Positions 19,623-42,629 of a stretch of DNA of 64,000 nucleotides are shown here, piece by piece. The stretch is from an uncultured Nitrososphaerota archaeon (GTDB taxonomy: Archaea > Thermoproteota > Nitrososphaeria > Nitrososphaerales > Nitrosopumilaceae), in contig OY969559.1 in assembly GCA_963701075.1 (NCBI GenBank), forward strand, positions 960,001 through 1,024,000. Reading direction: 5' to 3'. The first letter of the stretch is position 1. The number at the start of each line of letters is the position of its first letter. The translations under genes and the position numbers were made by a program. The notes under the pieces were generated by a model. That model had not been told where the DNA came from. It searched no databases and saw only the letters and a list, made by a program, of their open reading frames with translations.

Positions 19623-19696
19623 GGGATCGTGGTCTAGCTTGGTATGATGCGGGTTTTGGGTACCTGAGGTCGTCGGTTCAAATCCGGCCGATCCCA
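19623..19696 (+). tRNA. tRNA-Pro (TGG), intronless, CCA not encoded
   Basis: Acceptor GGGATCG/CGATCCC, anticodon arm CGGGT-TTTGGGT-ACCTG, T arm GTCGG-TTCAAAT-CCGGC. Confidence 0.95.
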
Positions 19697-21547: not shown

Positions 21548-21587
21548 GTAGACATTGTAGACAATATTTGTCGACATTGTCTACAAT
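21548..21587. repeat. Four-box GTMKAC palindromic site, left copy
   Basis: GTAGAC att GTAGAC aatattt GTCGAC att GTCTAC aat; box spacing 9/13/9; runs into ATG at 21586; TTATAA at 21541. Confidence 0.95.
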
Positions 21588-22764
21588 GAACAATCCATTC
21601 AACCCAGGCTCGGGAGTGCCTCCTCCTTATCTTGCTGGAAGGCAAGAGCATTTGGCAAGGTTTGAACAAATGTTAAAGAGCATTAATGACGGCCATGTTG
21701 AGAATCTGATAGTATATGGTTTACGAGGGACTGGAAAAACGGTCCTCATGGAAGAATTTAGTAAGTTGTGCATAAGTCACAGGTTCATTCCTATCAAGAG
21801 AGCACAGTTTAGTAAGAAATACTGTGACCCAGATGAGTTTACCAAGGCATTAAAATATGACATAAAGACTGCAATAGGTACATTTTCCAGGGTCAAGCGA
21901 ATAAAAGACAAGTTTACTTCAATTCTCTCTTATGTTAGACCAAAACATGTGGGAATCCCAGATGTTTTCTATTATGAACCGTCTTACAGTTCAGCTTCCG
22001 GCGTACCATTTGAGGATCATCTGAAGGAATATCTTACCAAGAATTGGAAAATCTTTGAAAACAGTAATTACAAAGGGGTTATCTTTCTCTTTGATGAATT
22101 TCATTCAATCTATGACGTACCATACAAAAAGTGGTTTGTTCTTTCTGATTTTATGGGGGTACTAAATGAAGTACAAAAGACTGGCTGTAGATATTTTGCA
22201 GTTTTTTCTGGCCTGCCAAACCTTCATCTCAATATTAAAGAAGCAAGATCGTATTCTGAACGCATGTACAAATCATTGGAAGTTGGAAATCTAAGTGAAG
22301 AAGAGGCAACATCTGCAATTACAAATCCGTTAGTTAAAAGTGAGTACAAGTTTGAAAAATCTCTTGTTGAAAAGATTGTAGTCGAAACTGGTCAGTATCC
22401 ATATTTTATTCAATTCTATTGTAAAGAGTTAATCAATATGAGTGATAAGAAGAAAATTTCTCTAAGTGAATACGAGAGAATCAGTCCTATGATTACAAAA
22501 CAACTCGATGATGACTTTTTTGATCCCAGACTGGAGATATTGAGTGATGATGAACAAAAAGTGATTGTTTCCATGGCACGTGCAACTGATACTGACATAC
22601 CGTTTGATTTTATCAAGAAAAAGACAAGAATGGAACGAACTACATTATCAAAATATATGAAAAGGCTCGAGGAGAAGGGTCTGGTTTATAACTACAAACG
22701 TGGAATTTACCGTTTCTCTGTCCCATTGCTAAAGCAGTATCTTGTACGAAAGTCGACAATGTAG
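21586..22764 (+). CDS. AAA/STAND-like ATPase with C-terminal winged HTH
   Basis: NPFNPG..PPYLAGR, Walker A GLRGTGKT, Walker B FLFDEFH, TGQYPYFIQ, C-terminal RLEEKGLV...GIYRF. Confidence 0.9.
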   Translation: MNNPFNPGSGVPPPYLAGRQEHLARFEQMLKSINDGHVENLIVYGLRGTGKTVLMEEFSKLCISHRFIPIKRAQFSKKYCDPDEFTKALKYDIKTAIGTFSRVKRIKDKFTSILSYVRPKHVGIPDVFYYEPSYSSASGVPFEDHLKEYLTKNWKIFENSNYKGVIFLFDEFHSIYDVPYKKWFVLSDFMGVLNEVQKTGCRYFAVFSGLPNLHLNIKEARSYSERMYKSLEVGNLSEEEATSAITNPLVKSEYKFEKSLVEKIVVETGQYPYFIQFYCKELINMSDKKKISLSEYERISPMITKQLDDDFFDPRLEILSDDEQKVIVSMARATDTDIPFDFIKKKTRMERTTLSKYMKRLEEKGLVYNYKRGIYRFSVPLLKQYLVRKSTM

Positions 22765-25970: not shown

Positions 25971-27533
25971 CTATTTTGATTTAAGACGTAACAGAATTAG
26001 ATTAGTTTCCATTCTGCCATATTTTGTAGGATATTTGTCCTTCAGTTCTGTGATTAAAAGAGTAGCAGCAACGTTTGCTCCACCTTCACCATAATAATTA
26101 TCAAGATTTTCAATAATTTGTTTATCAAACACCTTACTTAGATCCTGAAAAAAGATCTCTTTAGATACGTTCATTTTTTGCGCCTGCATGTTTCGTTGAA
26201 GTAGATTAACTAATCTAAACAGAACACTAATTCCTCTGTTATGACCAAAATATGTTCCTGCCTTAAATGAATAATCTGGCATGTATTGCTGCATGTAAGT
26301 AAAAATCTCCTTCAACTTTTTGTTAGTAGTAGAAACTGTTTCTTGTACCAGATTGTTGCTAATCATTGCAGAAACAAGCGTAGTTAGAGTAATTTTGTCA
26401 CCTTTTTGTTCATCTGCCATTCCAAAATAGATCCTATTTTTGAAAAATGAATGATTTAGCTCGTCTGCGACTCCGACTGATATTTTTTCTTTAAACTCTC
26501 TTGTTCCTTCCTTCCAATCTAAATCAGCCTTTAGCAGTAGTATTAGGTTACCGTCTATTCTTTGTTGTTTTGAATTAATATCAACAAATGTCTTGATCTC
26601 CTTTTTTCTATCATAATCTTGTAATGCAATAACTGGCATAGAGTACATCTTCTGAATTTCCGATGATACTACTGAAAAACCCAAAAGCCTGTGCTGTCCG
26701 TCAATTATTCTACAAGTATTGTAACTTAATGGAAATTGTATTTTTACAACTTTTGGGCAATCCTCTGGTGGGAGTATTTTATTCGTCATATCAGGCACAT
26801 TTATCAAAATAGAATTTGGAAAGGAAAGTCCTTCTCCTTTTTTGATATTATTAGATATGTTGATCATTCTGTGTTCTTTCAAGGTCCTCTGATAACCCAC
26901 GTCTTTGGTTCTTCGTCTTGAAACATAACATGTGTGTAGTAAATTAAAGACTCTTTCTACAAAACAAAATACTGGTATGTCACCAATATAATATTGAATT
27001 GCATCAATCTGTTTTGATGTTTTCTCATCTTCAAATTCCAACCAATCAAGCAAGTCATTTTTAGCCCAAAGTCCAATTTTCTTGTAACAGTTTAAAAAAT
27101 ATTCATAATCATCTAGATATGCAACTTTGTTTAGTTTACCACTTTGTGTCATACGCTGAACTTCATGAGATGGATTTTCTGGAGTTTTAGTAGATAGATC
27201 AAAATATACTCTAATTACTTTTCTTGGTCTTAATTGGTATAGTTTGTTGACAATTGCCAAATTGTCACGATCTTCCCATTTAATAAAAAACGCATTTTTC
27301 TTATTACTAGAGTGTTTATCCTTACTCACCTCTACAAGAAACAAATAATCTTTGAAGGTGAAAATTAGATCAATTTCACCTATCCTTTGAGTTGATGAAT
27401 TTGTAATTATGGAATTTGCATCTACAAAAGTAAATCCTAATTTGAAAAGTAGATCTGCTACTTCACGCTCATTTTTATTTTCAATTTTAGCGATCTTTTG
27501 CTCTGTTTCTAAAATTTGGTCTTTTTCCATCAT
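25971..27533 (-). CDS. DGQHR (DndB-like) domain protein with N-terminal PD-(D/E)xK-like domain
   Basis: GYQR, FPNSILIN, IIDGQHRL, FVDINSKQ; N-terminal GEIDLIF...FLVEVSK. Confidence 0.85.
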   Translation of the reverse strand: MMEKDQILETEQKIAKIENKNEREVADLLFKLGFTFVDANSIITNSSTQRIGEIDLIFTFKDYLFLVEVSKDKHSSNKKNAFFIKWEDRDNLAIVNKLYQLRPRKVIRVYFDLSTKTPENPSHEVQRMTQSGKLNKVAYLDDYEYFLNCYKKIGLWAKNDLLDWLEFEDEKTSKQIDAIQYYIGDIPVFCFVERVFNLLHTCYVSRRRTKDVGYQRTLKEHRMINISNNIKKGEGLSFPNSILINVPDMTNKILPPEDCPKVVKIQFPLSYNTCRIIDGQHRLLGFSVVSSEIQKMYSMPVIALQDYDRKKEIKTFVDINSKQQRIDGNLILLLKADLDWKEGTREFKEKISVGVADELNHSFFKNRIYFGMADEQKGDKITLTTLVSAMISNNLVQETVSTTNKKLKEIFTYMQQYMPDYSFKAGTYFGHNRGISVLFRLVNLLQRNMQAQKMNVSKEIFFQDLSKVFDKQIIENLDNYYGEGGANVAATLLITELKDKYPTKYGRMETNLILLRLKSK

Positions 27534-27615: not shown

Positions 27616-29106
27616 ATGTTGTCTGATAAAGTAACTTTCGAATTTCTCAAGAATCATCTCTGGAAAGCAGCTGATATTCTAAGAGGTTCTTTAGACGCAG
27701 GTGAATATCGTCAGCCAGTCATGACTCTGCTTTTTCTAAAAAGACTAAATGACACATTTGAAGAAAATGCAGAAAAATTGCTCAAAGCAGGAAAGAGTCA
27801 GAAAGAAGCATATGAAAATCCTGCAAGACATAATTTTTTTATTCCAAAACAAGCACGCTGGAAAATATTATCAGAAACAACTGAAAAGGTTGGCGAAACA
27901 ATAGATCATGTCTGCAAATTAATAGAAAGAGAAAATCCAGATCTAGATGGTGTGATGACAAATACAAAGTATAGCGATAGAAGAAAATATCCTGACGATA
28001 AATTACGACAATTAATTTCTCACTTTAATTATCCATCATTAAAAAATTCTGATTTAGAAAAAGAAGACATTTTTGGTGATGCATATGAATATCTTTTAGC
28101 AGAATTTGCTGATGAAACAAAGAAGAAAGGTGGTGAGTTCTTTACTCCAAGAGAAATTGTTCGTCTTTTAGTTAGTTTAGTAGAGCCAAAAGAAGGTATG
28201 AAGATCTGTGATCCTACTTGTGGTTCTGGTGGAATGTTGATTGAATCAAGAAAATATGTGGAGCGTTCTGGTGGCAATCCACGAAATTTGATTTTAGAAG
28301 GGCAGGAAAGCAACTATGGAAATTTAGCCATGTGCAAGATGAACATGGTACTGCATGATATTATTGATTTTAAGATAGAATATGGAGATGTGTTATCAAA
28401 TCCAAAACTAGTAGAAGGTGGAAGGCTCAAAACCTACGACCGAGTTCTTGCTAATTTTCCTTTTAGTATGAATTGGGATAGTAAAATCGCTGCAAAAGAC
28501 TCATACAATAGATTCCGATTTGGTGTGCCGCCTGCAAAAGATAAGGCTGATTTTGCCTTTATTCAACACATGTTTTCTTGCTTAAATGGAAAAGGACAGG
28601 CTGCCATAATTTGTTCTCAGGGAGTATTGTTTAGGGGTGGTGAAGAGGTAAAGATTCGTGAGGGAATGATAAAAGAAGATGTAATAGAAGGAATTGTTGC
28701 ACTACCTTCCAATCTGTTTTATGGTACCGGAATACCTGCGTGTGTTTTGATATTAGATAGAAATAAACCTGCAAACCGTAAAAATAAAATAATTTTCATT
28801 CATGGCGCAAAAGACTATCAAGAGGGCAAAACTCGTAATACATTACGAGATTCTGATATAAAGAAAATTGTATCTGCTTTTAAGAATTACAAAGACATTG
28901 ACGGATATTGCCACATTGCGAATCTTGAAGAACTGCAAGAAAATGAGTTTAATCTTAATGTGCCAAGATATGTTGACATTTCAGAACATGAAGAAGAGAT
29001 TGATATTCAAAAAACAATTGATGAATTAAAAAAACTAGAGAAGGAAAAACAAGAACTTGAAGTTAGAGTAATTTCTAATCTAAAAGAATTGGGTTTTAAG
29101 GTTTAG
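27616..29106 (+). CDS. hsdM: Type I R-M methyltransferase subunit
   Basis: LWKAADILRG, GEFFTP, DPTCGSGG, motif IV variant NFPF, FNLNVPRYV. Confidence 0.95.
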   Translation: MLSDKVTFEFLKNHLWKAADILRGSLDAGEYRQPVMTLLFLKRLNDTFEENAEKLLKAGKSQKEAYENPARHNFFIPKQARWKILSETTEKVGETIDHVCKLIERENPDLDGVMTNTKYSDRRKYPDDKLRQLISHFNYPSLKNSDLEKEDIFGDAYEYLLAEFADETKKKGGEFFTPREIVRLLVSLVEPKEGMKICDPTCGSGGMLIESRKYVERSGGNPRNLILEGQESNYGNLAMCKMNMVLHDIIDFKIEYGDVLSNPKLVEGGRLKTYDRVLANFPFSMNWDSKIAAKDSYNRFRFGVPPAKDKADFAFIQHMFSCLNGKGQAAIICSQGVLFRGGEEVKIREGMIKEDVIEGIVALPSNLFYGTGIPACVLILDRNKPANRKNKIIFIHGAKDYQEGKTRNTLRDSDIKKIVSAFKNYKDIDGYCHIANLEELQENEFNLNVPRYVDISEHEEEIDIQKTIDELKKLEKEKQELEVRVISNLKELGFKV

Positions 29107-29109
29107 AAA

Positions 29110-30402
29110 ATGCAAATTGAAAAACAAAGACAAGGTTACAAACTAATTCAGATTCAATCTAGAAGATATGAAGAGATTCCAAATGATTGGAATGTTGTTA
29201 CATTAAAAAACTTGATAACTGACATAAAATCTGGTTTTGCATCTGGTGCGCGTGATGAAAATGGAGTAATTCAACTAAGAATGAATAACATTACTGATTA
29301 TGGAACACTAGATTTTAGTAAAATTCTGAAAGTTCCAATACCTGAGGATATTGATCAGTATGATCTGAAAAAAGACGATGTGCTTTTCAATAATACTAAC
29401 AGTCTTGATCTAATAGGAAAAACCACGATTGTTGATAACCTCATAGATCATACCTTCTCAAATCACATAACAAGAATAAGGACAGACAAGACAAAACTTG
29501 TTCCTTATTTCTTGATGTTGCTATTCTTAAAATACAAAGAACAAGCAATATTCCGTTCCATATGTAATACTCATGTGGGTCAATCTGGCATAAGCAAGAA
29601 TGAATTACTTAGGCTCAAAATCATCTGCCCACCATTAATAGAACAACAAAAAATTGCTTCAATTCTTTCATATGTTGATTATCTAATCAATCAAACACAA
29701 AAAATCGTTGAACAAACTCAGAGACTCAAGAAAGGAATATTGGAAAAGTTATTAACAAAAGGAATTGGACACACAAGATTCAATAAAACAAAACTTGGTG
29801 AAATTCCAGAAGAATGGAAAATTGAAAAACTTGAAAACATTTGTAAAATAACAGATACTCCGCATTATACATCGCCTTTGTTTAAAGACGGAATACCAGT
29901 TATTACTACCGCCGATTGTGATGAAAGTGGTAGAATAGATTATACACATGTAAATTTTACAACTAGAGAAGAATATCAAAAAAGACGGGAAACAATAAAT
30001 CCAGAAAAAGATGATGTGTTGTTTACTAGAGAAGCTCCATTAGGTATTGCAGTTGTAGTTGATAGAGACGAAATTGCGGTTGGTCAGAGAATTATTTTAT
30101 TAAAATTAGATAAAAAATTGATCAACAATATGTTCCTTATAACATTTCTAAATTCAGCAAGAGGTATTTATCAATCTAATTCTTTTGCCATAAAAACCAC
30201 AGTTGAACGAGTTAACATATCGGACATAAAGAAATTTGTAATTCCACTTCCTTCAATTTTAGAACAACAAAAAATTTCCAATATTTTATCAAATGTTGAT
30301 TTACAAATTCAAAAAGAACAAGAATACAAATCCAATCTTGAAACTCTCAAAAAAGGATTAATGCAAAAACTTCTCACAGGACAAATCAGGGTAAAAGTTT
30401 GA
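29110..30402 (+). CDS. hsdS: Type I R-M specificity subunit
   Basis: Two TRDs, repeated EIP..W and P...EQQKI..IL conserved regions, LKKGLMQKLLTG. Confidence 0.95.
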   Translation: MQIEKQRQGYKLIQIQSRRYEEIPNDWNVVTLKNLITDIKSGFASGARDENGVIQLRMNNITDYGTLDFSKILKVPIPEDIDQYDLKKDDVLFNNTNSLDLIGKTTIVDNLIDHTFSNHITRIRTDKTKLVPYFLMLLFLKYKEQAIFRSICNTHVGQSGISKNELLRLKIICPPLIEQQKIASILSYVDYLINQTQKIVEQTQRLKKGILEKLLTKGIGHTRFNKTKLGEIPEEWKIEKLENICKITDTPHYTSPLFKDGIPVITTADCDESGRIDYTHVNFTTREEYQKRRETINPEKDDVLFTREAPLGIAVVVDRDEIAVGQRIILLKLDKKLINNMFLITFLNSARGIYQSNSFAIKTTVERVNISDIKKFVIPLPSILEQQKISNILSNVDLQIQKEQEYKSNLETLKKGLMQKLLTGQIRVKV

Positions 30403-33377
30403 ACTTTGACGTAGCAGATAACGACGAAGGAAACAAGTCAGAGCGACCAGCCTTAGAGCAACTATACGCTATGGGATATGATTATCTAAGCCAAAATGAC
30501 CTAAACAAAACACGAAGAGATTACCGTGAAGTTTTGCTTTATGACAGGCTAGAAAAGGCAATCAGAAAACTCAATCCCGAATTTGATGATGACGGTGTAA
30601 GAGACGCACTCACACAAATCAGTGAATTATCATATCCGTATACACTAGATCCAATGGATACAAACGAAAAGATTAGAGCAAAACTTGTTGAACTATCAAG
30701 ATCAAATGGATTAGAACCAATAATTGTAACTCAAAACTTTGGAGAAGGTCCTGAAGAAAAAACTGTAAAACTATTCGATTTTGATAATCCTGAAAATAAT
30801 GACTTTCTAGCAACTAACCAATTTCAGCTAGATGGTTTTAAAAATCCAATATATCCAGACATTGTAATTTTTGTAAATGGTATACCATTAGTTATAATAG
30901 AATGTAAATCGCCTTCAATTCCAGATCCTATAGGAGAAGCAATAGAAAGAAAAAACTTTGCACATTATCAAACAAGGGGATTAGGATTTGAAAGATTGCT
31001 TTTCTATAATCACTTTCTTGTTGCAACATGTGGAACACTTGCAAGACACGGAACTCTTGGTTCTAGCATAAATCATTATGCAAGATGGTCAGAAGCATAT
31101 CCGCTAACTATAGAAGAGATTGAAAAAATATGTAAAAGAAAACCACGAGAGCAAGAAATTCTTATTGCAGGCATGTTATCAAAGTCACATCTTTTAGATC
31201 TACTCAAAAACTATGTCCTATACGAAGATGTAAACAACAAAAAAATAAAAAAGATTGCAAAACACCAACAGTATAGGGTAGTTACAAAAGCAGTCAACAG
31301 ATTACATCTTGAAGGAAACATTGCAGACAAAGGTGGAGTTATCTGGCACACTCAGGGATCAGGAAAATCACTTTCAATGCTCTGGTTTGCAACGCAATTA
31401 ATGTTCAAGTTCAAAAACCCAGCCATAATTATCGTTACAGACAGAAAGCAACTAGACAGGCAGATTCATGACACCTTTAGAGCATGTGGCTTTGCAGAAC
31501 CTGAAAAAGCCAAGAGTTCAAGACATTTGGCAGAACTATTCCAAAATGCAAAAGGTAAGACCATAATGACAACCATTCAAAAGTTTGCTACGGAAGGTGC
31601 TCAAATCCACACAGATGAGAAGGCAATCGTACTAGTAGATGAGGCACATCGAACTCAATACAAGTTTAATGCGGAAGATATGCGAGCAGCCATTCCAAAT
31701 GGCGTATTTTTTGCATTTTCAGGTACTCCAATTGACAAGAAAAACAAGAGCACTTACAGAGTCTTTGGTCCAATGCTTGACAAGTATTCCTTTGAAGAAT
31801 CTAAAGCAGATGGTGCAACTTTGTCAATATTATACGAAGGTCGTATGCCTCATCTTTTTGTTGAAGGAGAAGATACAATAGACAAAATATTTGAAAGAGT
31901 ATTTTCTGATCTTGACAAAGAAACTAAAGCCAAGCTAAAATCACAATATGTAACAAAAGGAAAAATCGCAGAAGCACCTGCAAGAATTAGAAAGATATGC
32001 ATTGACTTGGTTGATCATTTTACTAAACATATACAGCCAAACGGTTACAAGGCTATAGTTGTTGCATCATCAAGAGAAGCCGCAGTTCTTTACAAAAGAG
32101 AACTAGACAAACTAAATGCGCCGCAATCAAGAATCATAATGACTTCACAACTTGGTGAAAAAGGAAAAGATGGTAGTAACTGGGATGAATATTTCCTAAC
32201 TCCTGAACAGCGTGAAATAAAATCTGAAGAGTTCAAAAAACCTGAAGACTCAACAAAGATCCTAATTGTTGTTGACATGCTTCTTGTAGGTTATGATGTT
32301 CCAATTGCTCAAGTGTTGTATCTTGATCAGGGACTAAAAGAACACAATTTACTTCAGGCAATTGCTAGGGTAAACAGACCGTACGATGAAGCAAAAACCT
32401 ATGGCTTGATAATAGATTATTGCGGAGTAACAAATGAGTTACAAAAGGCACTTGCTATTTTTGAAGAAGAAGATATTCAGGGCGCACTAGAACCTCTAAA
32501 AGGAGAACTAGAAGAACTGAGGCTACGGCATTTAGACGTAATGTCTCATTTCAAGGATGTAGACAGAAACGATGACGATGCAATAATTACCAAGTTTGAA
32601 CCTGTAGATATTCGGGATAAATTTGAGTATGATTTTAAGATGTTCTCAAAGGCTCTAGACGTAGTACTTCCTGACAAAGAAGCAGATCCGTACATTGCAG
32701 ATTTTAAATTTGTTAGCAAAATCAGACAGATGATTCGTACGTATTATGAAGGTGTAAAGCCAAGCATTAGGGAATTTGGCAAAAAAGTGCAGCAACTAAT
32801 TGATGATCACATTAGATCTTTGAATATTTCTGAATTGATGGACCCACGTGAAATTACCTATGATAATTTTATTGCATATGCAAAGAAATTCAAAAGTGAC
32901 AGGGCAAGAACTGCCTTAATTAAAAACAAGGCAAGGCAGATAATTCGTGAACTAGCACCAAACAACCCTGCATATTATGAAAGATTGAGAGAAAGACTAG
33001 AAAAAATAATCACAGAAGAAGAAATTCGACGTAAAGAAAGTGCCGATTATTTTAACAAATATTTGGAAATTTATGAATCTGCACTAAATGAGAAAAAAGA
33101 AAGGGAAAAACTAGGATTTGAAACACCTTTTGAGTTTGCAGTATTTGGTGAATTACAAAACATAAAAAATAATGAAGAAAATTCAAAGCAAATCACCAAA
33201 ACAATATATCAAAAGATAAAAAAAGAGACAGAAATAATAGGCTGGAAAACAAAAACAAGCACAGAAAAGAATTTGCGTGTTATAATATTGGACATTTTAT
33301 CAGAAAATAAATTCAAGGAAGAAAAAATAGGTGAATTAAGTCGCAAAATAATAGATTTGGCAAAACATCACTTGTAA
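30399..33377 (+). CDS. hsdR: Type I R-M restriction subunit
   Basis: PDIVIFVNGIPLVIIECK nuclease, WHTQGSGKS, DEAHR, QAIARVNR. Confidence 0.96.
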   Translation: MNFDVADNDEGNKSERPALEQLYAMGYDYLSQNDLNKTRRDYREVLLYDRLEKAIRKLNPEFDDDGVRDALTQISELSYPYTLDPMDTNEKIRAKLVELSRSNGLEPIIVTQNFGEGPEEKTVKLFDFDNPENNDFLATNQFQLDGFKNPIYPDIVIFVNGIPLVIIECKSPSIPDPIGEAIERKNFAHYQTRGLGFERLLFYNHFLVATCGTLARHGTLGSSINHYARWSEAYPLTIEEIEKICKRKPREQEILIAGMLSKSHLLDLLKNYVLYEDVNNKKIKKIAKHQQYRVVTKAVNRLHLEGNIADKGGVIWHTQGSGKSLSMLWFATQLMFKFKNPAIIIVTDRKQLDRQIHDTFRACGFAEPEKAKSSRHLAELFQNAKGKTIMTTIQKFATEGAQIHTDEKAIVLVDEAHRTQYKFNAEDMRAAIPNGVFFAFSGTPIDKKNKSTYRVFGPMLDKYSFEESKADGATLSILYEGRMPHLFVEGEDTIDKIFERVFSDLDKETKAKLKSQYVTKGKIAEAPARIRKICIDLVDHFTKHIQPNGYKAIVVASSREAAVLYKRELDKLNAPQSRIIMTSQLGEKGKDGSNWDEYFLTPEQREIKSEEFKKPEDSTKILIVVDMLLVGYDVPIAQVLYLDQGLKEHNLLQAIARVNRPYDEAKTYGLIIDYCGVTNELQKALAIFEEEDIQGALEPLKGELEELRLRHLDVMSHFKDVDRNDDDAIITKFEPVDIRDKFEYDFKMFSKALDVVLPDKEADPYIADFKFVSKIRQMIRTYYEGVKPSIREFGKKVQQLIDDHIRSLNISELMDPREITYDNFIAYAKKFKSDRARTALIKNKARQIIRELAPNNPAYYERLRERLEKIITEEEIRRKESADYFNKYLEIYESALNEKKEREKLGFETPFEFAVFGELQNIKNNEENSKQITKTIYQKIKKETEIIGWKTKTSTEKNLRVIILDILSENKFKEEKIGELSRKIIDLAKHHL

Positions 33378-33475: not shown

Positions 33476-34081
33476 ATGATTCGTACACCCTATAACAAAC
33501 CAATTTCGGAAATTCAACAAATAATTCAGATAAAAAAAGGCTGGATTTTTAAAAAACATCTGGAATTTAAAAAAAGAACATCTGAAATTCCAATTTTCAC
33601 CTATAAATCAGGGACAAAATTACCTTACTTAGGACAAAATTACACTCTAACTGTACTGAAAGGCCAGAAAAAAGAAGGCATTGCATTTTCTAAAAAAGGA
33701 TTTTTTGTCAACTTAAAAACCAATGACCTAAAACAAGTAAAGTCATTATATGAAAAATGGTTATTTTCAAGAGCTCAAAAGATTTTTGAAAATAAAATCA
33801 AACTTTATTCTACAAAATTAGGTCTAAAGCCAGAGAAAATCATCATAAAAAATTTAAAAAACCGATGGGGAAGTACAACTAAGAATAATATCATTAATTT
33901 GAACATGAATTTAATTAAAACACCGCAAGAAATTATTGGATATGTAATATTACACGAGCTATGTCACCTCAAAATTAAAGATCACTCGTATCATTTTTGG
34001 GATTTAGTAAGAAAATTCATGCCTAATTATCCAGAAAAAAAGTGTTGGCTTGAAGTGAATAGTACCAGAATTGTTGATTAA
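33476..34081 (+). CDS. M48/YgjP-like (DUF45) metal-dependent hydrolase
   Basis: RWGS, YVILHELCH, HSYHFW; typical position after hsdR; reading frame stays open upstream to about 33335. Confidence 0.9.
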   Translation: MIRTPYNKPISEIQQIIQIKKGWIFKKHLEFKKRTSEIPIFTYKSGTKLPYLGQNYTLTVLKGQKKEGIAFSKKGFFVNLKTNDLKQVKSLYEKWLFSRAQKIFENKIKLYSTKLGLKPEKIIIKNLKNRWGSTTKNNIINLNMNLIKTPQEIIGYVILHELCHLKIKDHSYHFWDLVRKFMPNYPEKKCWLEVNSTRIVD

Positions 34082-34123: not shown

Positions 34124-34179
34124 TTTATTATCAAAAAATCACATAACTATTTAAAGAACTGTGATCTTATGATAATAAA
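34124..34179. promoter_or_regulatory. 20-bp inverted-repeat operator flanking a TATA box
   Basis: TTTATTATCAAAAAATCACA - 16 bp containing TATTTAAA - TGTGATCTTATGATAATAAA; 18/20 complementary; ends at the ATG. Confidence 0.8.
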
Positions 34180-36266
34180 TGGATACTACTGCAATAAACA
34201 TAATCAGAGAAGTAGCCAATGGCAATTCAGACCCCAAGGCAATAATGCAGAATGTTGGAATAAAGGAGTGGCAACTAAATTCAAAATTAAAAGATCTCAT
34301 ACAGCAGGGTTATCTGCAAAAGGAGGAATCTACCGTCAGATTTCAAGACAATGCCAAACCTACAACTATTCGAAATTTAATAAAAAAGTTCAACATAGAA
34401 AAAATACTTCGTGGAGCAAACGAAATCATCTTTTCATATTTGACAGAACCAATATCCATCAATGAAATTATTTCAAAAACAGATTTATCGACGTCTACAG
34501 TTTACCGAGCTATATCTGATTTTGAATCTATAGGCGCAATTACAAAAGAGGATGACAAGATTTCAGTAAACAATTCCGATGATCAATTAACACTTTTGGC
34601 CAGCATATTAAAGACAGAACGGGATAACATGTACGAACCAAATGCAGAAATAATTTATCAAGATGCGTCTAAAGTTCTAAAAAAAGTAATACGGGGGAAA
34701 ATTACTGAGGGGCAACTCACAGGTTTTTCTTTGTTTAACGAGTATGGAATTGAATATCACACAAATTTCGATTATTACATAAAACAGGATATTCCCTTAG
34801 ATGTTCAACATGTATTAATTCATGCAGTATATGATACACAGAAAAATCAAGACAAAACTGGCCTTACAATGGCGATAATTTTTTATCTAAAAAATAAAAA
34901 TAAGATGGATGTTCTTAATATCAGACAGATAGCTGAATCATTTAAGATCGCACATGTTTGGATAGATATAGAGGGGTACATAAGAAATAACGAATTAAAA
35001 AATACACATCTGTTCCTTTCAAAACAAGAGTTCATGGAAAAAGCTGATCTTTATGATGTATCACCTGATTTGTATACACTTCCGGAAGGACACCCAAAAC
35101 TATTTGATGATATTGGTACAAGCGTACCTCAGTTTGCAAGAACTTACTTGATTGGTGGAGAAAACATGAGAATCAAGGGATTAAAGGCAAGAACCAAGGA
35201 TATAGACTTGGTAGTTGAAACAAAAGAGGATTACGAATCAATCGTAACAGCACTCACAAAATTAGGATATGAACCCAGAACGAATGATGTATTTTCACGG
35301 GAGGATTTGAGAGTATACCCATCAATAATAATGACTCATCCTAATAGAAGTCAAATCGATTTATATACAAAGAAAATTCTACGAACACTCTCCTTATCGA
35401 GTACGATGATAAGCCGAGCAGACTTGGAAGATCATGGCTATTTACGCTTAGGGTTGCTACGAAATGAGGATCTATTCTTGTTAAAAGCTGTTACTAGTAG
35501 AGAAGGAGACATTCAAGACATGGCCTTACTTGCAAGATTGAGTTATGTCGGTGATGGAAAATTCCGACAACCAGAATTTAATTGGGATATAGTATGGGAT
35601 GAAATATTACGGCAAGAAGAAGAAAACAAAATTCAATCGTTTAGTGATGTCATATTAGAAAACATAGAATGGTTGATAGAACAGACCGGAATAATACCAC
35701 CGTTTCGTAACAAATTACAGAGATTTGTATTAGATCAAAAAATAAGAAAGCTTGTACGTGAAGGGAAAATACCATTAAAAGAAATAGTGAATTTGCTAGA
35801 AAGTGATGACAATCCAGAATCAACAATAAGAAATCGTATAGAAGCACTAGTCAAAGAAGGAATACTAAAAAAAGAATATGAAAACAATGATGTCTTTGTA
35901 TTACCCATACAAGAAATCGTTTTTCCAGAACCAGATTGGAAGATTACATCCGAGAGTTTAGAAACTTATCTACGATGGAAATTTCCTACAAGAAAAGTTG
36001 CCACTCCCTTACAGATTCAAAAATTTGTAGATGAGGTGTTATCTACTGGAAATACGACCATTGTAGATCTTGACAAATTAGTACAGAATATAGTTTGTAA
36101 ATTAAAAGAATATGAGAAGGTGTATTATCCCAAAGAACGACTAAGTCAAACTGGGGCCTTAAGGGTGTGTATTGGATTTTCTGATCCCAAATTGGGAAAA
36201 AATGGAACTACCAACTTTTACATCAGTGACTTTGATAAATTTGCAAAGATCGGAGGGTTAAATTAA
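34179..36266 (+). CDS. Fused wHTH + nucleotidyltransferase (AbiEii/DUF6036-like; type IV TA-like)
   Basis: N-terminal HTHs (LSTSTVYRAI), YLIGGENM...RTKDIDLVV, LFLLK...REGDIQDM, further HTH (ESTIRNRIEALVKEG). Confidence 0.75.
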   Translation: MDTTAINIIREVANGNSDPKAIMQNVGIKEWQLNSKLKDLIQQGYLQKEESTVRFQDNAKPTTIRNLIKKFNIEKILRGANEIIFSYLTEPISINEIISKTDLSTSTVYRAISDFESIGAITKEDDKISVNNSDDQLTLLASILKTERDNMYEPNAEIIYQDASKVLKKVIRGKITEGQLTGFSLFNEYGIEYHTNFDYYIKQDIPLDVQHVLIHAVYDTQKNQDKTGLTMAIIFYLKNKNKMDVLNIRQIAESFKIAHVWIDIEGYIRNNELKNTHLFLSKQEFMEKADLYDVSPDLYTLPEGHPKLFDDIGTSVPQFARTYLIGGENMRIKGLKARTKDIDLVVETKEDYESIVTALTKLGYEPRTNDVFSREDLRVYPSIIMTHPNRSQIDLYTKKILRTLSLSSTMISRADLEDHGYLRLGLLRNEDLFLLKAVTSREGDIQDMALLARLSYVGDGKFRQPEFNWDIVWDEILRQEEENKIQSFSDVILENIEWLIEQTGIIPPFRNKLQRFVLDQKIRKLVREGKIPLKEIVNLLESDDNPESTIRNRIEALVKEGILKKEYENNDVFVLPIQEIVFPEPDWKITSESLETYLRWKFPTRKVATPLQIQKFVDEVLSTGNTTIVDLDKLVQNIVCKLKEYEKVYYPKERLSQTGALRVCIGFSDPKLGKNGTTNFYISDFDKFAKIGGLN

Positions 36267-36297
36267 TGTACACAGAAATTAATATGAGGTTATCAAA

Positions 36298-37177
36298 ATG
36301 AGTGTGGAAGAACGATTAAACACAATTCTCCCTGCAGCAGAAGCAGAACTAGGGAATAGAAACTTTGTTGCGATACTTGGTCTGTCTGGTGTAGGAAAAA
36401 CTGTATTGGTGACATTGCTTGGACATGCATTAGACAAATATTTTCTAAAGAAACAATCAGAAATCAAAGGACGTATCACTGGAGGAAGGGTATTTTTGGA
36501 AACATGTGAAAATGGAATGTTAGATGGCATATTCCCAGAAAGAACTCAGCTTCTAGCAAGAGAGGAAATCGTTATAGAAATGAACAGAAGCGGTGGAACT
36601 GGAAAAGCCATTGAAATTAGATTGCCAGATATCTCAGGTGAAACTTTTAACACCCTGTGTTTAGGTGATGAGATATCAGCTGAAAGAGAGAGCCTTAAAG
36701 ATATTTGAAACATCCAAACCAAAAGGCAAGACTTTTGGAGATATGACATACGTCATTTATGCTAAAATTTATCTCATTCTGTTAGATTGTTCAAAAATAG
36801 GCGAATGGGAAAAATTAGCAATCAGACATAATCAAGCATTAGCAACAATCAAAGAATTACAAAGTGTTAGACTAAAAAAAGAAATCAACAAAATAGAAAG
36901 TCCGATAGGAATTGTTTTAACAAAATCAGATACACTATCCAATCCAGATGAACCTGCAAAATCTGTGGTGGACAACAATATGGGAAGATTTCTTAACACA
37001 CTAGATTCGTTACATAAAGGTGAAAAAGAATTTTTTAAACTTCACGTGGATGTTGAACGAAATACAGATAATGCAATCACAGATCCAACTGCGTTAAAAG
37101 TAAGAAGACCGTTGACGTATAGTCACGATGAATACATGAGATTGCTCAAGTGGATTCATGATAACAGCTCGGAATAA
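36298..37177 (+). pseudogene. TRAFAC-class GTPase (DO-GTPase-like), split by a +1 frameshift near 36685
   Basis: G1 GLSGVGKT, G2 PERT and G3 DISGE in 36298-36708; G4 TKSD in 36665-37177; overlap contains GAAAGAGAGAGCC. Confidence 0.75.
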
Positions 37178-37179
37178 AA

Positions 37180-38469
37180 TTGCCAACTTGTGAACATTTC
37201 ATTTATACCGCAGGAAAGATCGGCACCAAAGAAGGATATCAGATCATTGCCAGGAGCGAAGGAATTTCTGATAGAATCGTTGATAATCTTTTAGAATACC
37301 TGTTTCCCATAGGTGTAAAATCTGAAGAATTCACAGAATCAAGATCACTTTTAGTTTTTGATAAAACCAAGATTGCTTACAGTATAATAAAAAACTTAGG
37401 AATCGGCTACGACGGTAGACGTGGTACTTTATACAATCATACTTTCATAATAAACAAAGATGATTTTGAAAAATTAAATTATGATTCCAGAGTATTCGAG
37501 AGTTTCTTCATACAAAACCCATCAATTCGCGGTAGACTAGAACCTATTAAAATAAACACAACAGCCAAACTACCACGTTTAGAATTACTTCAAAAATTGG
37601 ATGAAAAGATCCTTAGTGAAATCTTACATGCCTTGCTTAAAAAAACAAAAATTGCCCTGGTGAAGCTTGATGATTTGGAACTGATACCTAATCTACTTGC
37701 ACTGCTGCCACCGCCTCTACGACTAGTCTCATTTTCTACCCTAGTTAATGATCCAGATAAGCAATACAAGTATGACCTTATTCAGATCCCCGAACGAGCA
37801 CAGAATAAAGTTGGACGAGGCTTTACCGTAATTAGTCATGACTTAACAAAGATTTCAAAGCATGATGATCCCTTTAACGAATCAGTCCAGCTTCTTGTTA
37901 ACGTTGTTAAGACAAAAAATACAGTACAATTAGAAAAGATTTTCAGCGACTTTCAGAAAATCTCTGTACACGTATCTCAAGTACGAAATATTGAGCTTAA
38001 AGAAATTTTCAATCAAGATGAATTCAAACATCTTGAAAAGAAAGAGAAATTTGCAAAAATGACTCAAAAAATTCAAGAACTTTATTCAAGCTCGTCATTT
38101 AATCAAGCGCCAACGCGAGTCGTCGTATCAATTACAAAGAAACTAAGAAAGACAATCGAACATGCTTTGAAAAGACAACAGAAATCCAAAACCCCATCAC
38201 AAGCAGACACAGACAAGCTGCTGGCGGCTGTAAAAGTTTTGCTAGATTGTATGTATTACACAAAAAACTATAGCGGTAAAAAGATTTCTCCATCAACAAA
38301 AAAAGACATTATTTCAGAGATAACAATCTTAGAAGAAATTATGAAAAAATACAAAATTAAAGATTCAAAGGCTAAATTTGATCCCTATGAATATGCAGCA
38401 ATGGCGTTTGAACAAACTATGAAATATAGTCAGGCATTATTACGATTATGGTTTGTACCTCGAGGTTAG
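37180..38469 (+). CDS. GAP1-N2/GAP1-M-like (DENN-like) GTPase-associated protein
   Basis: HFIYT...GYQIIARSEGI...DGRRGTLYNHTFII and LLALLPPPLRLVSFST motifs; 2 bp after the GTPase. Confidence 0.65.
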   Translation: MPTCEHFIYTAGKIGTKEGYQIIARSEGISDRIVDNLLEYLFPIGVKSEEFTESRSLLVFDKTKIAYSIIKNLGIGYDGRRGTLYNHTFIINKDDFEKLNYDSRVFESFFIQNPSIRGRLEPIKINTTAKLPRLELLQKLDEKILSEILHALLKKTKIALVKLDDLELIPNLLALLPPPLRLVSFSTLVNDPDKQYKYDLIQIPERAQNKVGRGFTVISHDLTKISKHDDPFNESVQLLVNVVKTKNTVQLEKIFSDFQKISVHVSQVRNIELKEIFNQDEFKHLEKKEKFAKMTQKIQELYSSSSFNQAPTRVVVSITKKLRKTIEHALKRQQKSKTPSQADTDKLLAAVKVLLDCMYYTKNYSGKKISPSTKKDIISEITILEEIMKKYKIKDSKAKFDPYEYAAMAFEQTMKYSQALLRLWFVPRG

Positions 38470-38642
38470 AAATCACACACTCAAAGAGGCTTTAAAAATA
38501 GGAGTTTCAAGAAGAACGTACTTTGATTGGCAAAAGAAAATAAGAGATGGAATTCCTTTTTCGTTAAAAACAAAGACTTTAAAAAAATTATTAATTTCTT
38601 ACTGAAAACTTATCTTGTTGGACAATAATAAAATGATTCTAG

Positions 38643-41600
38643 ATGATCCAACTTACTGAAATTGAGAGTCGTATTTTTACAGAACTATCTAAGATAGACA
38701 CAAAAATTTCAGATATTTATTATGGCGCAATATCCGTACTTGATAGAGAGACCAGTTTTTCCATAGGTATACAAGAATCGAGCTTACCACAAGATTCTAG
38801 TTCACAACAAAGACCAAATCCAGAAAGATTATTTCATGCAGCTCATTCTCTACGCGAAACATTAAATGTTCTTTTAAGAAGAATAGAAATACCAGAACAG
38901 TCTGATGCTTTCAGAGAAAAGATAAAAAAATTTGCAGATCCATTAGGACAACTTCCTGATAATCTTCATGGCTTATTTAATGAATTATTTGATTTACATA
39001 GATGGTTCACAAGTGTTTCACATCATGGACGTTATCCAACCGATGGTGAATTTTTAGATAAATTTGAAAAATTCAATTCAACCTTAGTTCGAATCCTTAC
39101 ACCACATTTTGTATCCCTAGGAGAAATGGATAAACTCATAGCTATTGACAATCCCACAGAAGAGGATATGGAAAAAATATTGCCACTCATGTCAAAAAAT
39201 TATTCTTCTTACGGCCATTTCTTTACTACTGCAAATAGTAATTGGATTACTTTACTGAAAAACAAGGGCTTTTTCCAAAATCCGCCCATACCAAAACGTG
39301 AAGGAAACTTTATTCAATTTCCTTCATGGCCAGAATCATATTATCTGGCTAAAATTGCTGCTGAAAAACCCGATATAGTTTATACAACAATTAGAGAATG
39401 TAAAATATCATCTAACAAAGATGAATGGAATCCCAGAGTTCTTGAAGATTTTGTAAAAGCTGCAATACGTATGCCATGTGAATATGCATCGAAAATGTCC
39501 ACACTGATTGTTGAGAATAAGTGGCAAGATACAAGAACCCTTTCGTTACTTAATACAGAGTTATCAAATCTAATGGAAAAATTATCTGATTGTGGTGATA
39601 TTGAATCATCTATAGAACTTGGTAGTATGTTGCTAGATGTGGATATTGTAGAATTATCTCCGAGAGGGAGTATCGAAAATGTGGAATAAAGAAGTACAAA
39701 GTAAAATCGATAATTATACTTATGAAGAGATACTTAAAAAAATACCAAAATTAGCTGAGAAAGATCCCATTGCTGCTACAAAATTACTTGCAGATAAACT
39801 CAATAAGGCCATATTTTTAGAACAAAAGAAAAATTCGAATAAAGCAAGTGATGACGACTATTCATATTATTGGAGACCGGCCATAGAAGAGCACTCCAAT
39901 AATTGGGAGACTCAAAACATAAAATCAATGCTGGTAAAATCACTAAGAGATGTACTAGAAACATCTGGTTACAAAAACATTGAAACTCTAAAGAAAATAC
40001 TTGAAATTCTAAAAGAAAAAAACTATCATATTTTTAGGCGGTTGGAACTTCATGTATATCGTCTCTTTCCTAATGAATTTAAGAATGAAATTGAAATAAT
40101 TGCTGTAGATTATTTTGGTAAGGCGAGTTTTCTACATGAATATTATCTCTTATTACAACAAAATTATGCCACATTGACAAAATTCACACAAGAAAAAATT
40201 CTTGCCTTGATTGAACAAGGCCCTAATTTTGATAGATTTCGTGGAACAAAAGAAGAATTTGAACAATACAAAAAATATTGGAAAGCATCCAAACTTGAAC
40301 CAATTATCAAATATTTACCAATTGAAAAACAGCAGGAATATGATAACCTAGTACACGAGGTAGGCCCTCTTGAATTAACAAACTTTTCAATGTCTCAGTC
40401 GGCATTTCAACAAATAGTATCACATACTGAATTATCTGAAGAAATGAATGTGGATCAAGTTATTGCATTTATCAAATCATACCGATTAAAGGACGAACAT
40501 TTTATGGAGGATGATGGTACTGCAACGAAATTCAAGGAGTTTGTAGAGAAAATGCCTCTGGAATATTCGTCTATGGCATTAGAACTTCTTTCTGCACACC
40601 CTGTATTTTCTTATGAATTATTTTGGGGTTTATCTGATGCATTAAAAAACAAGAAAAAAATTGAATGGGTGCCTGTTATAACACTCTGTGAAAAAATACT
40701 GGAAAATTCTCAAGACTCACGATATGAGAAAACCCTTGGAAACATCATAAGTTTCATGGCAGATCTACTTGAAACTAATATGTTACATACAGATTTGTCC
40801 ATAGGATTTGAAATGCGTGATAGAGTATGGCAAATATTGAAAAAATTGGTTGAACTAGCGGCCGATGATTCCACATGGGCAAGTAGTTATCCTAAAAGGA
40901 ATTTTGATTCTTTTACAATATCAATAAACAGCGAAATAGGAAGATCCATGAATGCGGTTATGCAATATTCTGTGTGGTGCTATCACGGCTTAAAAAAGAA
41001 AACACATGATAAAGATGGGTTAGTGAATGAAGTAAAAAAATTGTTAAGTGAAAGATTAGATCCTAAAATTGACAGTACGGTATCTACTCATGCAGTTTTT
41101 GGTTTTCATTTAGCCAATCTCTTTGCATTAGATAAAGAGTGGACAAGAGAGAATTTAAAGAAAATATTTCTTACGGGGGAATTAGAAATTCTTGGGTATG
41201 CTGCTTGGGATGCATATCTCCATCAGCAAATATATTCAAACGTTTTTGTTGAAATGAAAGAAGAATATGCCAATCAAATTAACAAACTAAATTCAAAAGA
41301 ACCAGAAGAAGAGATAAAAAAACATGTGGAGAAGAGATTAGCAGAACAAATTGGGTTAACATACATGTTAAAAATAAAAGAAAGTGAACCACTCTTCAAT
41401 CTATTTATGAGTAAAGCTCCCCCTAGATTAATGGGGTACTGTATTGAGTTCATTGGCAGGCAATTGGAATACTACAAGAAAGATGGAAAGACACCTGAAC
41501 AAGATATTAAACAACTTTGTAATAAAAAAGAGATACAAAAATACCCTGAGGCTGGCTGGTTATTTTTAAATAGTGTTCTTGACAAGAATTTTAATATACA

Positions 41601-41892
41601 TTTACTTCTTGAAACGCTCAATCAAACTCACGGTAAGATTGAACCAATATACCAAATTCCAAAAGAACTTGTATCCTATGCAAAAGACTTTCCGATAGAA
41701 GTTTTACAATGTATGGAAAAGATCATCCAAGCATATCAGAAAACCTTTGAAATTCCAATGATGAAAGATCATTTAAGAGAAATCATCAAGATTGTAAAAG
41801 ATAGTAGCGATTCTACAGGAATAAGTAAGGCTGCAGAACTAGTTAATTTCCTTGGTTCTCTTGGTTATGAAGAATATAGGGATCTATTATAA
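38643..41892 (+). pseudogene. Large (~1080 aa) putative defence protein, HEPN-like N-terminus plus helical region, split by a +1 frameshift near 39652-39689
   Basis: NPERLFHAAHSLRE and RWFTSVSHH at N-terminus; WPESYYL and YWRPAIEEH; ORFs 38643-39689 and 39679-41892 overlap. Confidence 0.6.
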
Positions 41893-41942: not shown

Positions 41943-42629
41943 GTGACTGTTAAAAATAACGATATTACTCCTACGCAATCTTGTCTGATTCAATTAAATC
42001 ACATAGCGTACCGTTTGAGTTGGACAAACAGTCTGCTTGATAAGATCATACCAGAAATTCCAGGAGTGATTCTACAAGGTGGAGAAGATGAAAAAAAAGC
42101 AAAAACAATCGAAGCTCAAGTAAGAATATTTCTTGATTATACTTTTCTGAACTTGTATCAACTAATTGAGATTCATGACACTCAAGTGGGAAGGATCTTG
42201 AAGGATTTGGGTCATATTGAACTTGAAAAATCGCTGGTTGAACTATGGACTCCTATAAAACAACTCGGAACAAAGATCGAACTTTGGCGAAATTCTTATG
42301 TAGCACATTCGAAAGGGCAAGCAATTAATTTCAAAGATTTTCATGAAATAGACCCTGATTATTCAAATACTTTAAAAAAAACATTACTTGCATCCAGATT
42401 AGCCTCCCTTTACATTGCTGGAATATTTACCAATCTGAAAGCCGATTATAAACTTGCCTTATCAAATCAACAAGCAAAATCTGCAGGTAGTTCAGTAGTG
42501 TGGGCTGACTTTAAGAAATGGTGGCTAGAAATGAATAAGGAAACAGAAAAAATATTGGATCAAACCAACGCGCGAATTAAACAAGGTGGTTATGATAAAA
42601 TTCAACCACTAAAGTATCTAGGTCAATAA
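41943..42629 (+). CDS. HEPN (AbiU2-like) putative RNase
   Basis: Alpha-helical character, RNSYVAH = Rx4-6H motif. Confidence 0.6.
   Translation: MTVKNNDITPTQSCLIQLNHIAYRLSWTNSLLDKIIPEIPGVILQGGEDEKKAKTIEAQVRIFLDYTFLNLYQLIEIHDTQVGRILKDLGHIELEKSLVELWTPIKQLGTKIELWRNSYVAHSKGQAINFKDFHEIDPDYSNTLKKTLLASRLASLYIAGIFTNLKADYKLALSNQQAKSAGSSVVWADFKKWWLEMNKETEKILDQTNARIKQGGYDKIQPLKYLGQ

Follow-up and report, generated by a model that had tools for sequence, protein, structure and literature searches.

What does a GTPase gene, apparently interrupted by a frameshift, encode together with its closely packed neighbors in the genome of an ammonia-oxidizing archaeon? The question is raised by a 64,000-nucleotide stretch of DNA (the window) of an uncultured, Nitrosopumilus-like member of the Nitrososphaerota (GCA_963701075.1, contig OY969559.1, positions 960,001 to 1,024,000), in which a first-pass annotation, made from the letters alone, had placed a GTPase and a regulatory partner at positions 36298 to 38469. 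These two genes and the nucleotidyltransferase (NTase) gene upstream of them are read here as an intact three-gene operon of the DO-GTPase/GAP1 (N2) type that would work as a conflict-system switch, an overall reading that we hold at a probability of about 0.6. The DO-GTPase/GAP1 pair was defined by comparative genomics by Kaur, Burroughs, Iyer & Aravind 2020 (eLife 9:e52696, PMC7159879), and in the open-access literature searched only that paper uses these names.

The GTPase gene and its GAP1 partner

Sequence families were called with Pfam at its curated gathering cut-offs (27 bits for the DO-GTPase families, 24 bits for GAP1-N2). In the deposited assembly, gene 2 consists of an open reading frame (ORF) of 136 amino acids on the + strand, which holds the P-loop GLSGVGKT, and an overlapping ORF of 170 amino acids in the +1 frame of the same strand, which holds the LTKSD motif. 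The N-terminal fragment by itself matches DO-GTPase1 (Bitscore: 36.2; e-value: 5.3e-9) and the second fragment gives 14.7 bits only against DO-GTPase2; the read-through product, from which base 36682 is omitted, scores 33.8 and 27.6 bits with the two families (PF19975 and PF19993), and the intact relative P0078 scores 33.4 and 27.6 bits. DO-GTPase1 and DO-GTPase2 are each matched by 29 of 30 relatives (26 database matches and four ORFs from related loci). The core residues of motifs G1 to G4 are invariant across the alignment of these relatives, and E115, in the G3 motif DISGE, is the conserved glutamate following the Walker B DxxG that Kaur et al. 2020 (PMC7159879) describe for DO-GTPases. 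The P-loop begins at residue 28 and is not preceded by a cysteine. Apart from the family match, no Pfam domain was found in the GTPase or its partner, neither protein has a PADLOC or NCBIfam match, and the GTPase profile retrieved nothing significant from the PDB sequences. By its family matches and its complete set of G motifs, gene 2 is a TRAFAC-type GTPase, and the recognition of a GTPase from position 36298 onward is thereby confirmed.

The interruption of this gene can be traced to one base. P0078, from a protein collection, is an intact GTPase of 292 amino acids that shares 99% identity with the read-through product and differs from it solely around '...EISAKERALK...', locating a single extra G at 36682. 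Logan contigs, rather than raw reads, of four metagenome runs were compared with the window over 36000-38600; runs X1, X2 and X3 belong to study P1, and are not mutually independent, and run X5 belongs to study P2. Base 36682 is left out at full depth in 4/4 runs from the two studies, and the interval is otherwise free of indels, with a single substitution in one run. As the base is missing from the contigs of all four runs, the frameshift is read as an assembly error: the extra G is most likely an error in this single-contig 1.9-Mb genome, the GTPase gene is most likely intact, and the 'repaired' GTPase assumed by the first-pass annotation is most likely the correct one. The genome carries a single GTPase copy, whose two pieces belong to one gene, and one GTPase gene is likewise found in each of the related operons.

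Gene 3 starts two bases past the end of the GTPase gene. Its product scores 23.8 bits against GAP1-N2 (PF20013; e-value: 5.1e-5), 0.2 bit below the gathering score of 24. Among 8000 candidates scored, 76 relatives were found at E<=1e-3, of which 23 sequences were aligned; 20 of these 23 match GAP1-N2 at E<=1e-3, and many relatives have a precomputed PF20013 assignment. A wider profile search of 1.84 billion representatives yielded 174 proteins at E<=1e-3. Pfam scanning of 31 of the matches listed identified 19 with a GAP1-N2 match at E<=1e-3 (14 exceed 24 bits; best: 80.4 bits), and three that pass GAP1-M (PF20014) at residues ~154-246, with a fourth falling 0.1 bit short and one fused to an HD domain (GAP1-M examples: P0348, 41.9 bits; P0306, 25.3 bits). 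The gene-3 family profile aligns with ten Pfam-positive GAP1-N2 plus GAP1-M proteins over 261 columns (hhalign probability: 100%; e-value: 4.4e-43), an alignment that is partly circular because the ten were picked from the profile's own matches, the Pfam scores being independent. GAP1-M itself gave no direct Pfam match in the gene-3 protein; its profile can nonetheless be aligned, up to column 263, with proteins that pass PF20014 in residues ~154-246, the choice of these proteins being partly circular in the same way. Where a GAP1-C domain would be expected, no Pfam family rises above threshold (residues 230-429), the helical tail being conserved only inside a 430-amino-acid subfamily from which the ~600-amino-acid relatives diverge past about residue 265. 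The near-cut-off score, the matches of the relatives and the hhalign result were taken together, and by these sequence comparisons gene 3 is accepted as a GAP1 protein of the N2 type. The earlier proposal of a GAP1-N2 partner, and of a DO-GTPase, GAP1-N2 and GAP1-M family assignment as a whole, is therefore upheld by profile matches and profile-profile alignment.

Two distant relatives of the partner, P0269 (920 amino acids) and P0242 (1565 amino acids), are fused to other modules, for example GAP1-N2 with HD and HD_assoc_2, which fits the effectors joined directly to GAP1 in the account of Kaur et al. 2020. One homolog with 54% identity (P0007) comes from a contig of 1,835 bases and bears the label 'Patescibacteria group bacterium', which may be a binning error given that every other relative with a name belongs to the Nitrososphaerota.

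The AlphaFold2 (AF2) model of gene 3, built from the 23 aligned sequences (predicted local distance difference test (pLDDT): 82.1; predicted template modeling score (pTM): 0.63), begins with a head in the order strand-strand-helix-strand-strand-strand-helix-helix, which is that of longin domains. Foldseek ranks 1-11 are occupied by DENND1A, DENND1B with Rab35, a C9orf72-SMCR8 chain, FLCN-FNIP2 chains, the Lst4 longin domain, DENND10 and TagF (best e-value: 1.1e-3; probability: 1.00). In a Foldseek-independent structure search of 48,161 representative chains with the model as query, only DENND10 (score: 9.5; 263 residues; root-mean-square deviation (rmsd): 5.4 Å), DENND1A (9.4; 266; 6.2 Å) and TagF (7.8; 232; 4.8 Å) span the head, the middle and the start of the tail among the matches listed, the other high-scoring rows being helical repeats that cover residues 268-403 only. 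As modeled, gene 3 shows a DENN-like layout in three parts (longin-like head, alpha/beta middle, helical tail), and the longin/DENN-like fold suggested in the first-pass annotation is supported as a confident predicted model.

The likeness is one of predicted fold. No Pfam DENN or longin family was matched at E<=0.1, and the gene-3 profile retrieved nothing significant from the PDB sequences, with no DENN chain among 13 matches at E<=10; nor was any solved structure of a DO-GTPase or GAP1 detectable by sequence in profile searches of the PDB. The eukaryotic DENN modules (DENND1A/1B-Rab35, DENND10, FLCN-FNIP, C9orf72-SMCR8) are alike in predicted fold but have no detectable sequence similarity to gene 3, superpose on it with an rmsd of 5-6 Å and partner with Rab, Arf or Rag GTPases, whereas gene 3 is partnered with a DO-GTPase. 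For these reasons, and because the regulator role is only predicted, fold likeness rather than DENN membership is claimed. TagF, a regulator of type VI secretion (PDB 9t0n), scores lower, and neither secretion genes at this locus nor a sequence link to TagF were found. Searches of the open-access literature turned up no paper in which GAP1 or TagF is assigned to DENN or longin, and neither longin nor DENN is mentioned in the main text of Kaur et al. 2020 (PMC7159879).

The longin-like head contains a conserved loop between its strands 4 and 5, with the consensus G-x-G-Y-D-G-R80-x-G-T-x-Y-N-H-T, in which G74, G76, Y77, D78, G79, R80, G82, T83, Y85, N86, H87 and T88 are invariant in the 23 sequences. 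The G-R of this consensus is kept in the profile-profile alignment with the ten distant Pfam-positive GAP1 proteins, among which G81 and R87 of P0348, in the aligned region, are invariant. Longin-type activators such as FLCN and Nprl2 use arginine fingers, and R80 is on this account flagged as a candidate catalytic or contact arginine. Co-folding of the GTPase with its partner scored 0.00 in both runs, for which controls were not run, and hence gives no verdict.

The upstream enzyme and the related loci

Gene 1 encodes nucleic-acid-binding winged helices at the N-terminus (residues 1-130), a minimal NTase domain (~301-503), a further winged helix (512-579) and a C-terminal domain (592-692), and its AF2 model has a pLDDT of 90.1. 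The alignment used as input comprises 36 sequences, namely the window protein, 33 of 221 matches and two ORFs from related loci. The NTase domain carries the hG[GS]...DxD motif and third carboxylate of the Pol-beta NTase fold: G326, E328, N329, M330, K333, K336, D341 and D343 are invariant in the 36 sequences, as are G326-G327 ... D341-x-D343 as a motif and K436 ... R441, and D394 is nearly so. Structurally the domain is closest to MenT1 (Foldseek top match; e-value: 6.7e-4) and MenT3/TglT, and model and motifs together suggest that it is most likely an active minimal nucleotidyltransferase. MenT enzymes target tRNA, and by analogy tRNA may be the target of gene 1. Unlike the MenT1, MenT3 (TglT) and AbiEii toxins, with which it shares 12-16% sequence identity, the domain is embedded in a protein of 695 amino acids that also has three or more winged helices and a docking-like C-terminal domain; those toxins have a cognate antitoxin, whereas no separate antitoxin-like gene was seen at the window locus.

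The C-terminal domain of gene 1 aligns with residues 225-327 of a RelA/SpoT protein at a related locus, L009 (hhalign probability: 96.2%; e-value: 2.2e-9), and BLAST matches to it are present at L023 and in the NTase homologs of L013-L017. It has no Pfam match, and an Atlas look-up gave no usable feature match, all structural rows having a template modeling score <0.5. As the same C-terminal domain is carried by two different nucleotide-handling enzymes at the same operon position, it is read as a putative adaptor to the GTPase/GAP1 pair.

Twelve related loci, all from Nitrosopumilus or Nitrososphaerota metagenome-assembled genomes (MAGs), were retrieved by scanning species-representative genomes, and further loci (L013-L027) were drawn from individual genomes and their genes compared by BLAST. 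In the window, in 12/12 related loci and in L023-L026, the partner is immediately preceded by the GTPase ORF, so that the expected co-occurrence of the two genes holds; L027 is different in that BLAST comparison detected no GTPase next to its GAP1-like ORF. A gene-1 homolog of ~700 amino acids (41-64% identity) lies directly upstream of the GTPase in 10/12 loci, where its stop and the GTPase start often overlap or nearly abut. At L009 the first gene instead encodes a 329-amino-acid RelA_SpoT protein (79.3 bits), followed by a 330-amino-acid GTPase and a 602-amino-acid GAP1 protein, and at L011 it encodes a pentapeptide-repeat protein that has no domain in common with the gene-1 family (hhalign probability: 0.2%). 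The RelA/SpoT alternative recurs at L023, and the pentapeptide alternative at L025 and L026. The first-pass annotation had described a minimal two-gene version of these systems. This was rejected, as the NTase gene is part of a conserved operon in 10/12 loci and the RelA/SpoT protein found in its place elsewhere has the same C-terminal domain.

Other homologs of gene 1 occur alone with an intact C-terminal domain (L013-L015), next to a shortened GTPase remnant while the NTase gene itself is intact (L016, 4827-5186; L017, 4810-5301) or with a different C-terminus (L018-L022). GTPase or GAP1 genes are split into two ORFs at L010 (7108-7997) and at L002 and L012 (8001-9284), and the copy at the G434 locus contains stops. 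Some of these copies may truly be decaying, and others may owe their breaks to indels introduced in the assembly of long-read MAGs. The ~3.9 Mb genome of L026 (G248:C1:1440000-1459999) carries two GTPase-GAP1 pairs ~9 kb apart, one of them with a pentapeptide-repeat first gene, and its GTPases have long N-terminal extensions (552 and 445 amino acids).

Distribution and genomic setting

Homologs of the partner were counted in samples of genomes, not censuses. In the family to which this archaeon belongs, 13/301 genomes contain the partner, with one match of merely 22 residues, and none of the 37 other genomes of its genus does so. The partner was found in 3/201 genomes of the order and in 4/301 genomes of the phylum, where all matches fall in the one family; the cassette was not found in the other families sampled. 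In the samples searched, the compact soluble form is confined to the family of this Nitrosopumilus-like archaeon. Gene-1 homologs are commoner, 21/301 family genomes having a best e-value below 1e-100, and the other genomes among the 74 with a match at E<=1e-3 show only short, weak similarity, for the most part to the winged-helix parts.

The cassette sits in a stretch of 32-35% G+C content at ~26-44 kb of the window, with 37-40% in the flanks. Window positions 19623-44400 probably represent an integrated island, which begins with a tRNA-Pro gene and a tyrosine integrase and includes a type I restriction-modification (R-M) system (Table 1); none of 12 short repeat families provided an attachment-site-like direct repeat of the tRNA-Pro end at the island's far side. 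The defense-island setting proposed at the outset is borne out by the low G+C content, the integrase, the R-M system and a Dsr1-like gene. The latter, downstream of the cassette, is presented as two ORFs that correspond to a single protein of 1072 amino acids at L009. The first (38643-39689) is 30% identical to that protein (e-value: 7e-34), and the second (39679-41892), which is 29% identical over 742 amino acids, contains a match to the C-terminal region of Dsr1 (PADLOC e-value: 3.9e-42). The N-terminal part is not SIR2, and its L009 counterpart gives a weak pP_pnuc_1 match. A run of four A (39676-39679) lies where these ORFs overlap; one extra A in it would account for the split, which may be a second assembly indel.

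The HEPN-like effectors that had been proposed downstream of the pair were not recovered. Besides the Dsr1 match, only a weak lead was obtained for the 228-amino-acid ORF, which contains the Rx5H motif (W-R-N-S-Y-V-A-H) and has no Pfam, PADLOC or NCBIfam match; in its language-model neighbor cluster, 11% of the members carry HEPN_AbiU2 (score: 0.91). A putative 50-amino-acid ORF, overlapping the 3' end of the GAP1 gene, resembles a small helix-turn-helix protein and has no Pfam match.

Table 1. Features of the three-gene cassette and of its surroundings, in window coordinates.
Feature	Position	Strand	Basis or remark
Gene 1, 695-amino-acid protein	34179..36266	+	winged helices, MenT/AbiEii-like NTase and C-terminal domain
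NTase catalytic motif GGENMRIKGLKARTKDIDLV (G326-G327 ... D341-x-D343)	35154..35207	+	
Third acidic residue of NTase, D394	35358-35360	+	
Gene-1 C-terminal domain of ~100 amino acids, residues 592-692	35952..36254	+	hhalign, BLAST
Gene 2, DO-GTPase, 292 amino acids without base 36682	36298..37177	+	Pfam, G motifs, intact relative
G1, GLSGVGKT (G28-T35; GxxxxGKT)	36379-36402	+	
G2, T83	36544-36546	+	
G3, DISGE (D111-I-S-G-E115)	36628-36642	+	
Extra G in GCT-G-AAA	36682..36682	+	splits the GTPase into 36298-36708 and 36665-37177
G4, TKSD (T208-K-x-D211)	36920-36931	+	
Gene 3, GAP1 protein (N2 type), 429 amino acids, TTG start	37180..38469	+	Pfam, profiles, predicted fold
Longin-like head	37180-37509	+	AF2 model
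Conserved loop GIGYDGRRGTLYNHT, between strands 4 and 5 of the head, with R80	37399..37443	+	
Alpha/beta middle (GAP1-M), residues ~130-225	~37567-37854	+	AF2 model
Helical tail	~37876-38451	+	AF2 model
tRNA-Pro	19623-19696		
Tyrosine integrase	19907-21151		
STAND-like ATPase	21568-22764		
DndB-like protein	25971-27533	-	
Type I R-M hsdM/S/R	27616-33377		
YgjP-like metallopeptidase	33476-34081		
50-amino-acid ORF, ...GVSRRTYFDWQKK...	38453-38605	+	putative; overlaps GAP1 3' end
Two ORFs, 38643-39689 (348 amino acids) and 39679-41892 (737 amino acids)	38643-41892	+	one 1072-amino-acid protein in L009
228-amino-acid ORF	41943-42629	+	contains W-R-N-S-Y-V-A-H (Rx5H motif)

A candidate conflict-system switch and its alternatives

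In the description of Kaur et al. 2020 (PMC7159879), systems of the N2 type include zinc-ribbon GTPases, membrane segments and fibronectin type III (FNIII)-repeat proteins, with tubulin, HSP70 or kinase themes; two paralogous GTPase copies occur in 38% of systems and are thus not obligatory. The cassette resembles their GAP1-N2 systems in that a GAP1 gene with domains N2 and M comes after a DO-GTPase with the DISGE glutamate, in combining a constant pair with a variable effector-like gene, and in its sporadic, mobile distribution. It has one GTPase, and differs in that this protein lacks the zinc ribbons, no cysteine preceding its P-loop. Furthermore, Pfam found no FN3/FNIII-repeat, zinc-ribbon, tubulin, HSP70 or kinase domain in the three genes, whose products are apparently soluble (transmembrane segments were judged by eye). 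The variable gene here encodes a MenT-like NTase or a RelA/SpoT protein, with a common C-terminal domain that lacks a Pfam match. As the FNIII repeats, zinc ribbons and transmembrane segments of the N2 type were not seen, the cassette is called a variant: judged by its sequence features, it is a compact variant of the GTPase-centric conflict systems, a class which is itself predicted. The host here is an ammonia-oxidizing archaeon; of archaeal hosts that paper says no more than 'a few archaea', and the word stem 'thaumarchae' does not appear in its main text (PMC7159879).

We suggest the following mechanism. The GTPase would be the switch, and GAP1 would bind it through the longin-like head and set its nucleotide state, possibly via R80. 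The shared C-terminal domain would dock the gene-1 enzyme onto the GTPase-GAP1 pair until the switch is thrown by some trigger, for instance infection by a virus. Once freed, the enzyme would modify tRNA 3' ends (or make or consume nucleotides), halting translation and leading to growth arrest. Both of the alternative first-gene enzymes, NTase and RelA/SpoT, belong to families that include known tRNA-targeting toxins (MenT and CapRel/FaRel-type). The solo NTase copies would be in keeping with an enzyme that stays inactive unless the switch activates it, but they also show that the coupling of enzyme and switch is not obligatory.

The enzyme could, alternatively, act as a source of signals, with the NTase or RelA/SpoT protein making a second messenger or alarmone under GTPase control and a separate protein, such as the Dsr1-like one, responding to it. 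RelA/SpoT domains make alarmones, and the L009 protein has a Pfam RelA_SpoT match; the Dsr1-like gene adjoins the cassette both in the window and at L009. Nucleotide-derived signals have also been proposed for some systems by Kaur et al. 2020 (PMC7159879). Beyond the window, however, a Dsr1-like neighbor is found in 1/12 loci only (L009; L024 is from the same genome), the operon contains no conserved receptor gene, and the NTase domain is structurally nearest to toxins and small-molecule adenylyltransferases rather than to cyclases. Such a signaling role is considered unlikely.

Proximity of the NTase domain to MenT1 and MenT3/TglT, the winged helix-turn-helix domains fused to it and the tight packing of the three genes would also be expected of a toxin-antitoxin-like module, in which a MenT/AbiEii-type toxin carries its fused winged helices as an AbiEi-type regulator and is neutralized by the GTPase and GAP1. 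An essential antitoxin role is hard to reconcile with the NTase homologs that retain the invariant catalytic residues yet lack GTPase and GAP1 or adjoin shortened remnants, and the GTPase-GAP1 pair is also found with first genes that are not NTases, making this arrangement decidedly unlikely.

The longin/DENN-like predicted fold of the partner further recalls housekeeping GTPase pairs that regulate polarity, the cytoskeleton or membrane dynamics, such as MglA/MglB or the Rab-DENN operons of Asgard archaea, of which one has been described (10.1101/2020.10.19.343400). A housekeeping function is very improbable in view of the occurrence of the partner in so few genomes of a single sampled family and in no other genome of the genus, the low-G+C island with its integrase and defense genes, the variable first gene and the frequent decayed copies. 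Finally, a decaying pseudogene remnant, in which the GTPase is truly frameshifted in the organism, was dropped and can hardly be the case: the deposited assembly has the extra base and decayed copies exist elsewhere (L010, L016, L017 and the G434 locus), but the base is missing from the contigs of all four runs, a possible source sample among them, and every G motif is retained.

The conflict-switch reading of the operon can be extended. Before the Asgard finding, the DENN module was said to be known 'only in eukaryotes' (10.1101/2020.10.19.343400). GAP1 proteins might be true prokaryotic homologs of DENN, the pair having arisen in the mobile conflict systems of bacteria and archaea before its reuse in eukaryotic membrane traffic, and in the Nitrosopumilaceae gating a tRNA-modifying NTase or a RelA/SpoT pyrophosphokinase through the previously unnamed C-terminal adaptor as an abortive-infection switch; we put this forward tentatively, as a possible but doubtful scenario.

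The Nitrosopumilus form of the DO-GTPase/GAP1 systems is unusually simple: it comprises three apparently soluble proteins, just one of which is a GTPase, it lacks zinc ribbons, and its first gene encodes an enzyme whose activity is readable. It would therefore be a practical model for the roles of the GTPase switch and of GAP1. If the DENN-like fold is confirmed, the DENN module would reach into the mobile conflict systems of bacteria and ammonia-oxidizing archaea. For the organisms themselves, the cassette represents a candidate virus-defense system in a globally abundant archaeal group.

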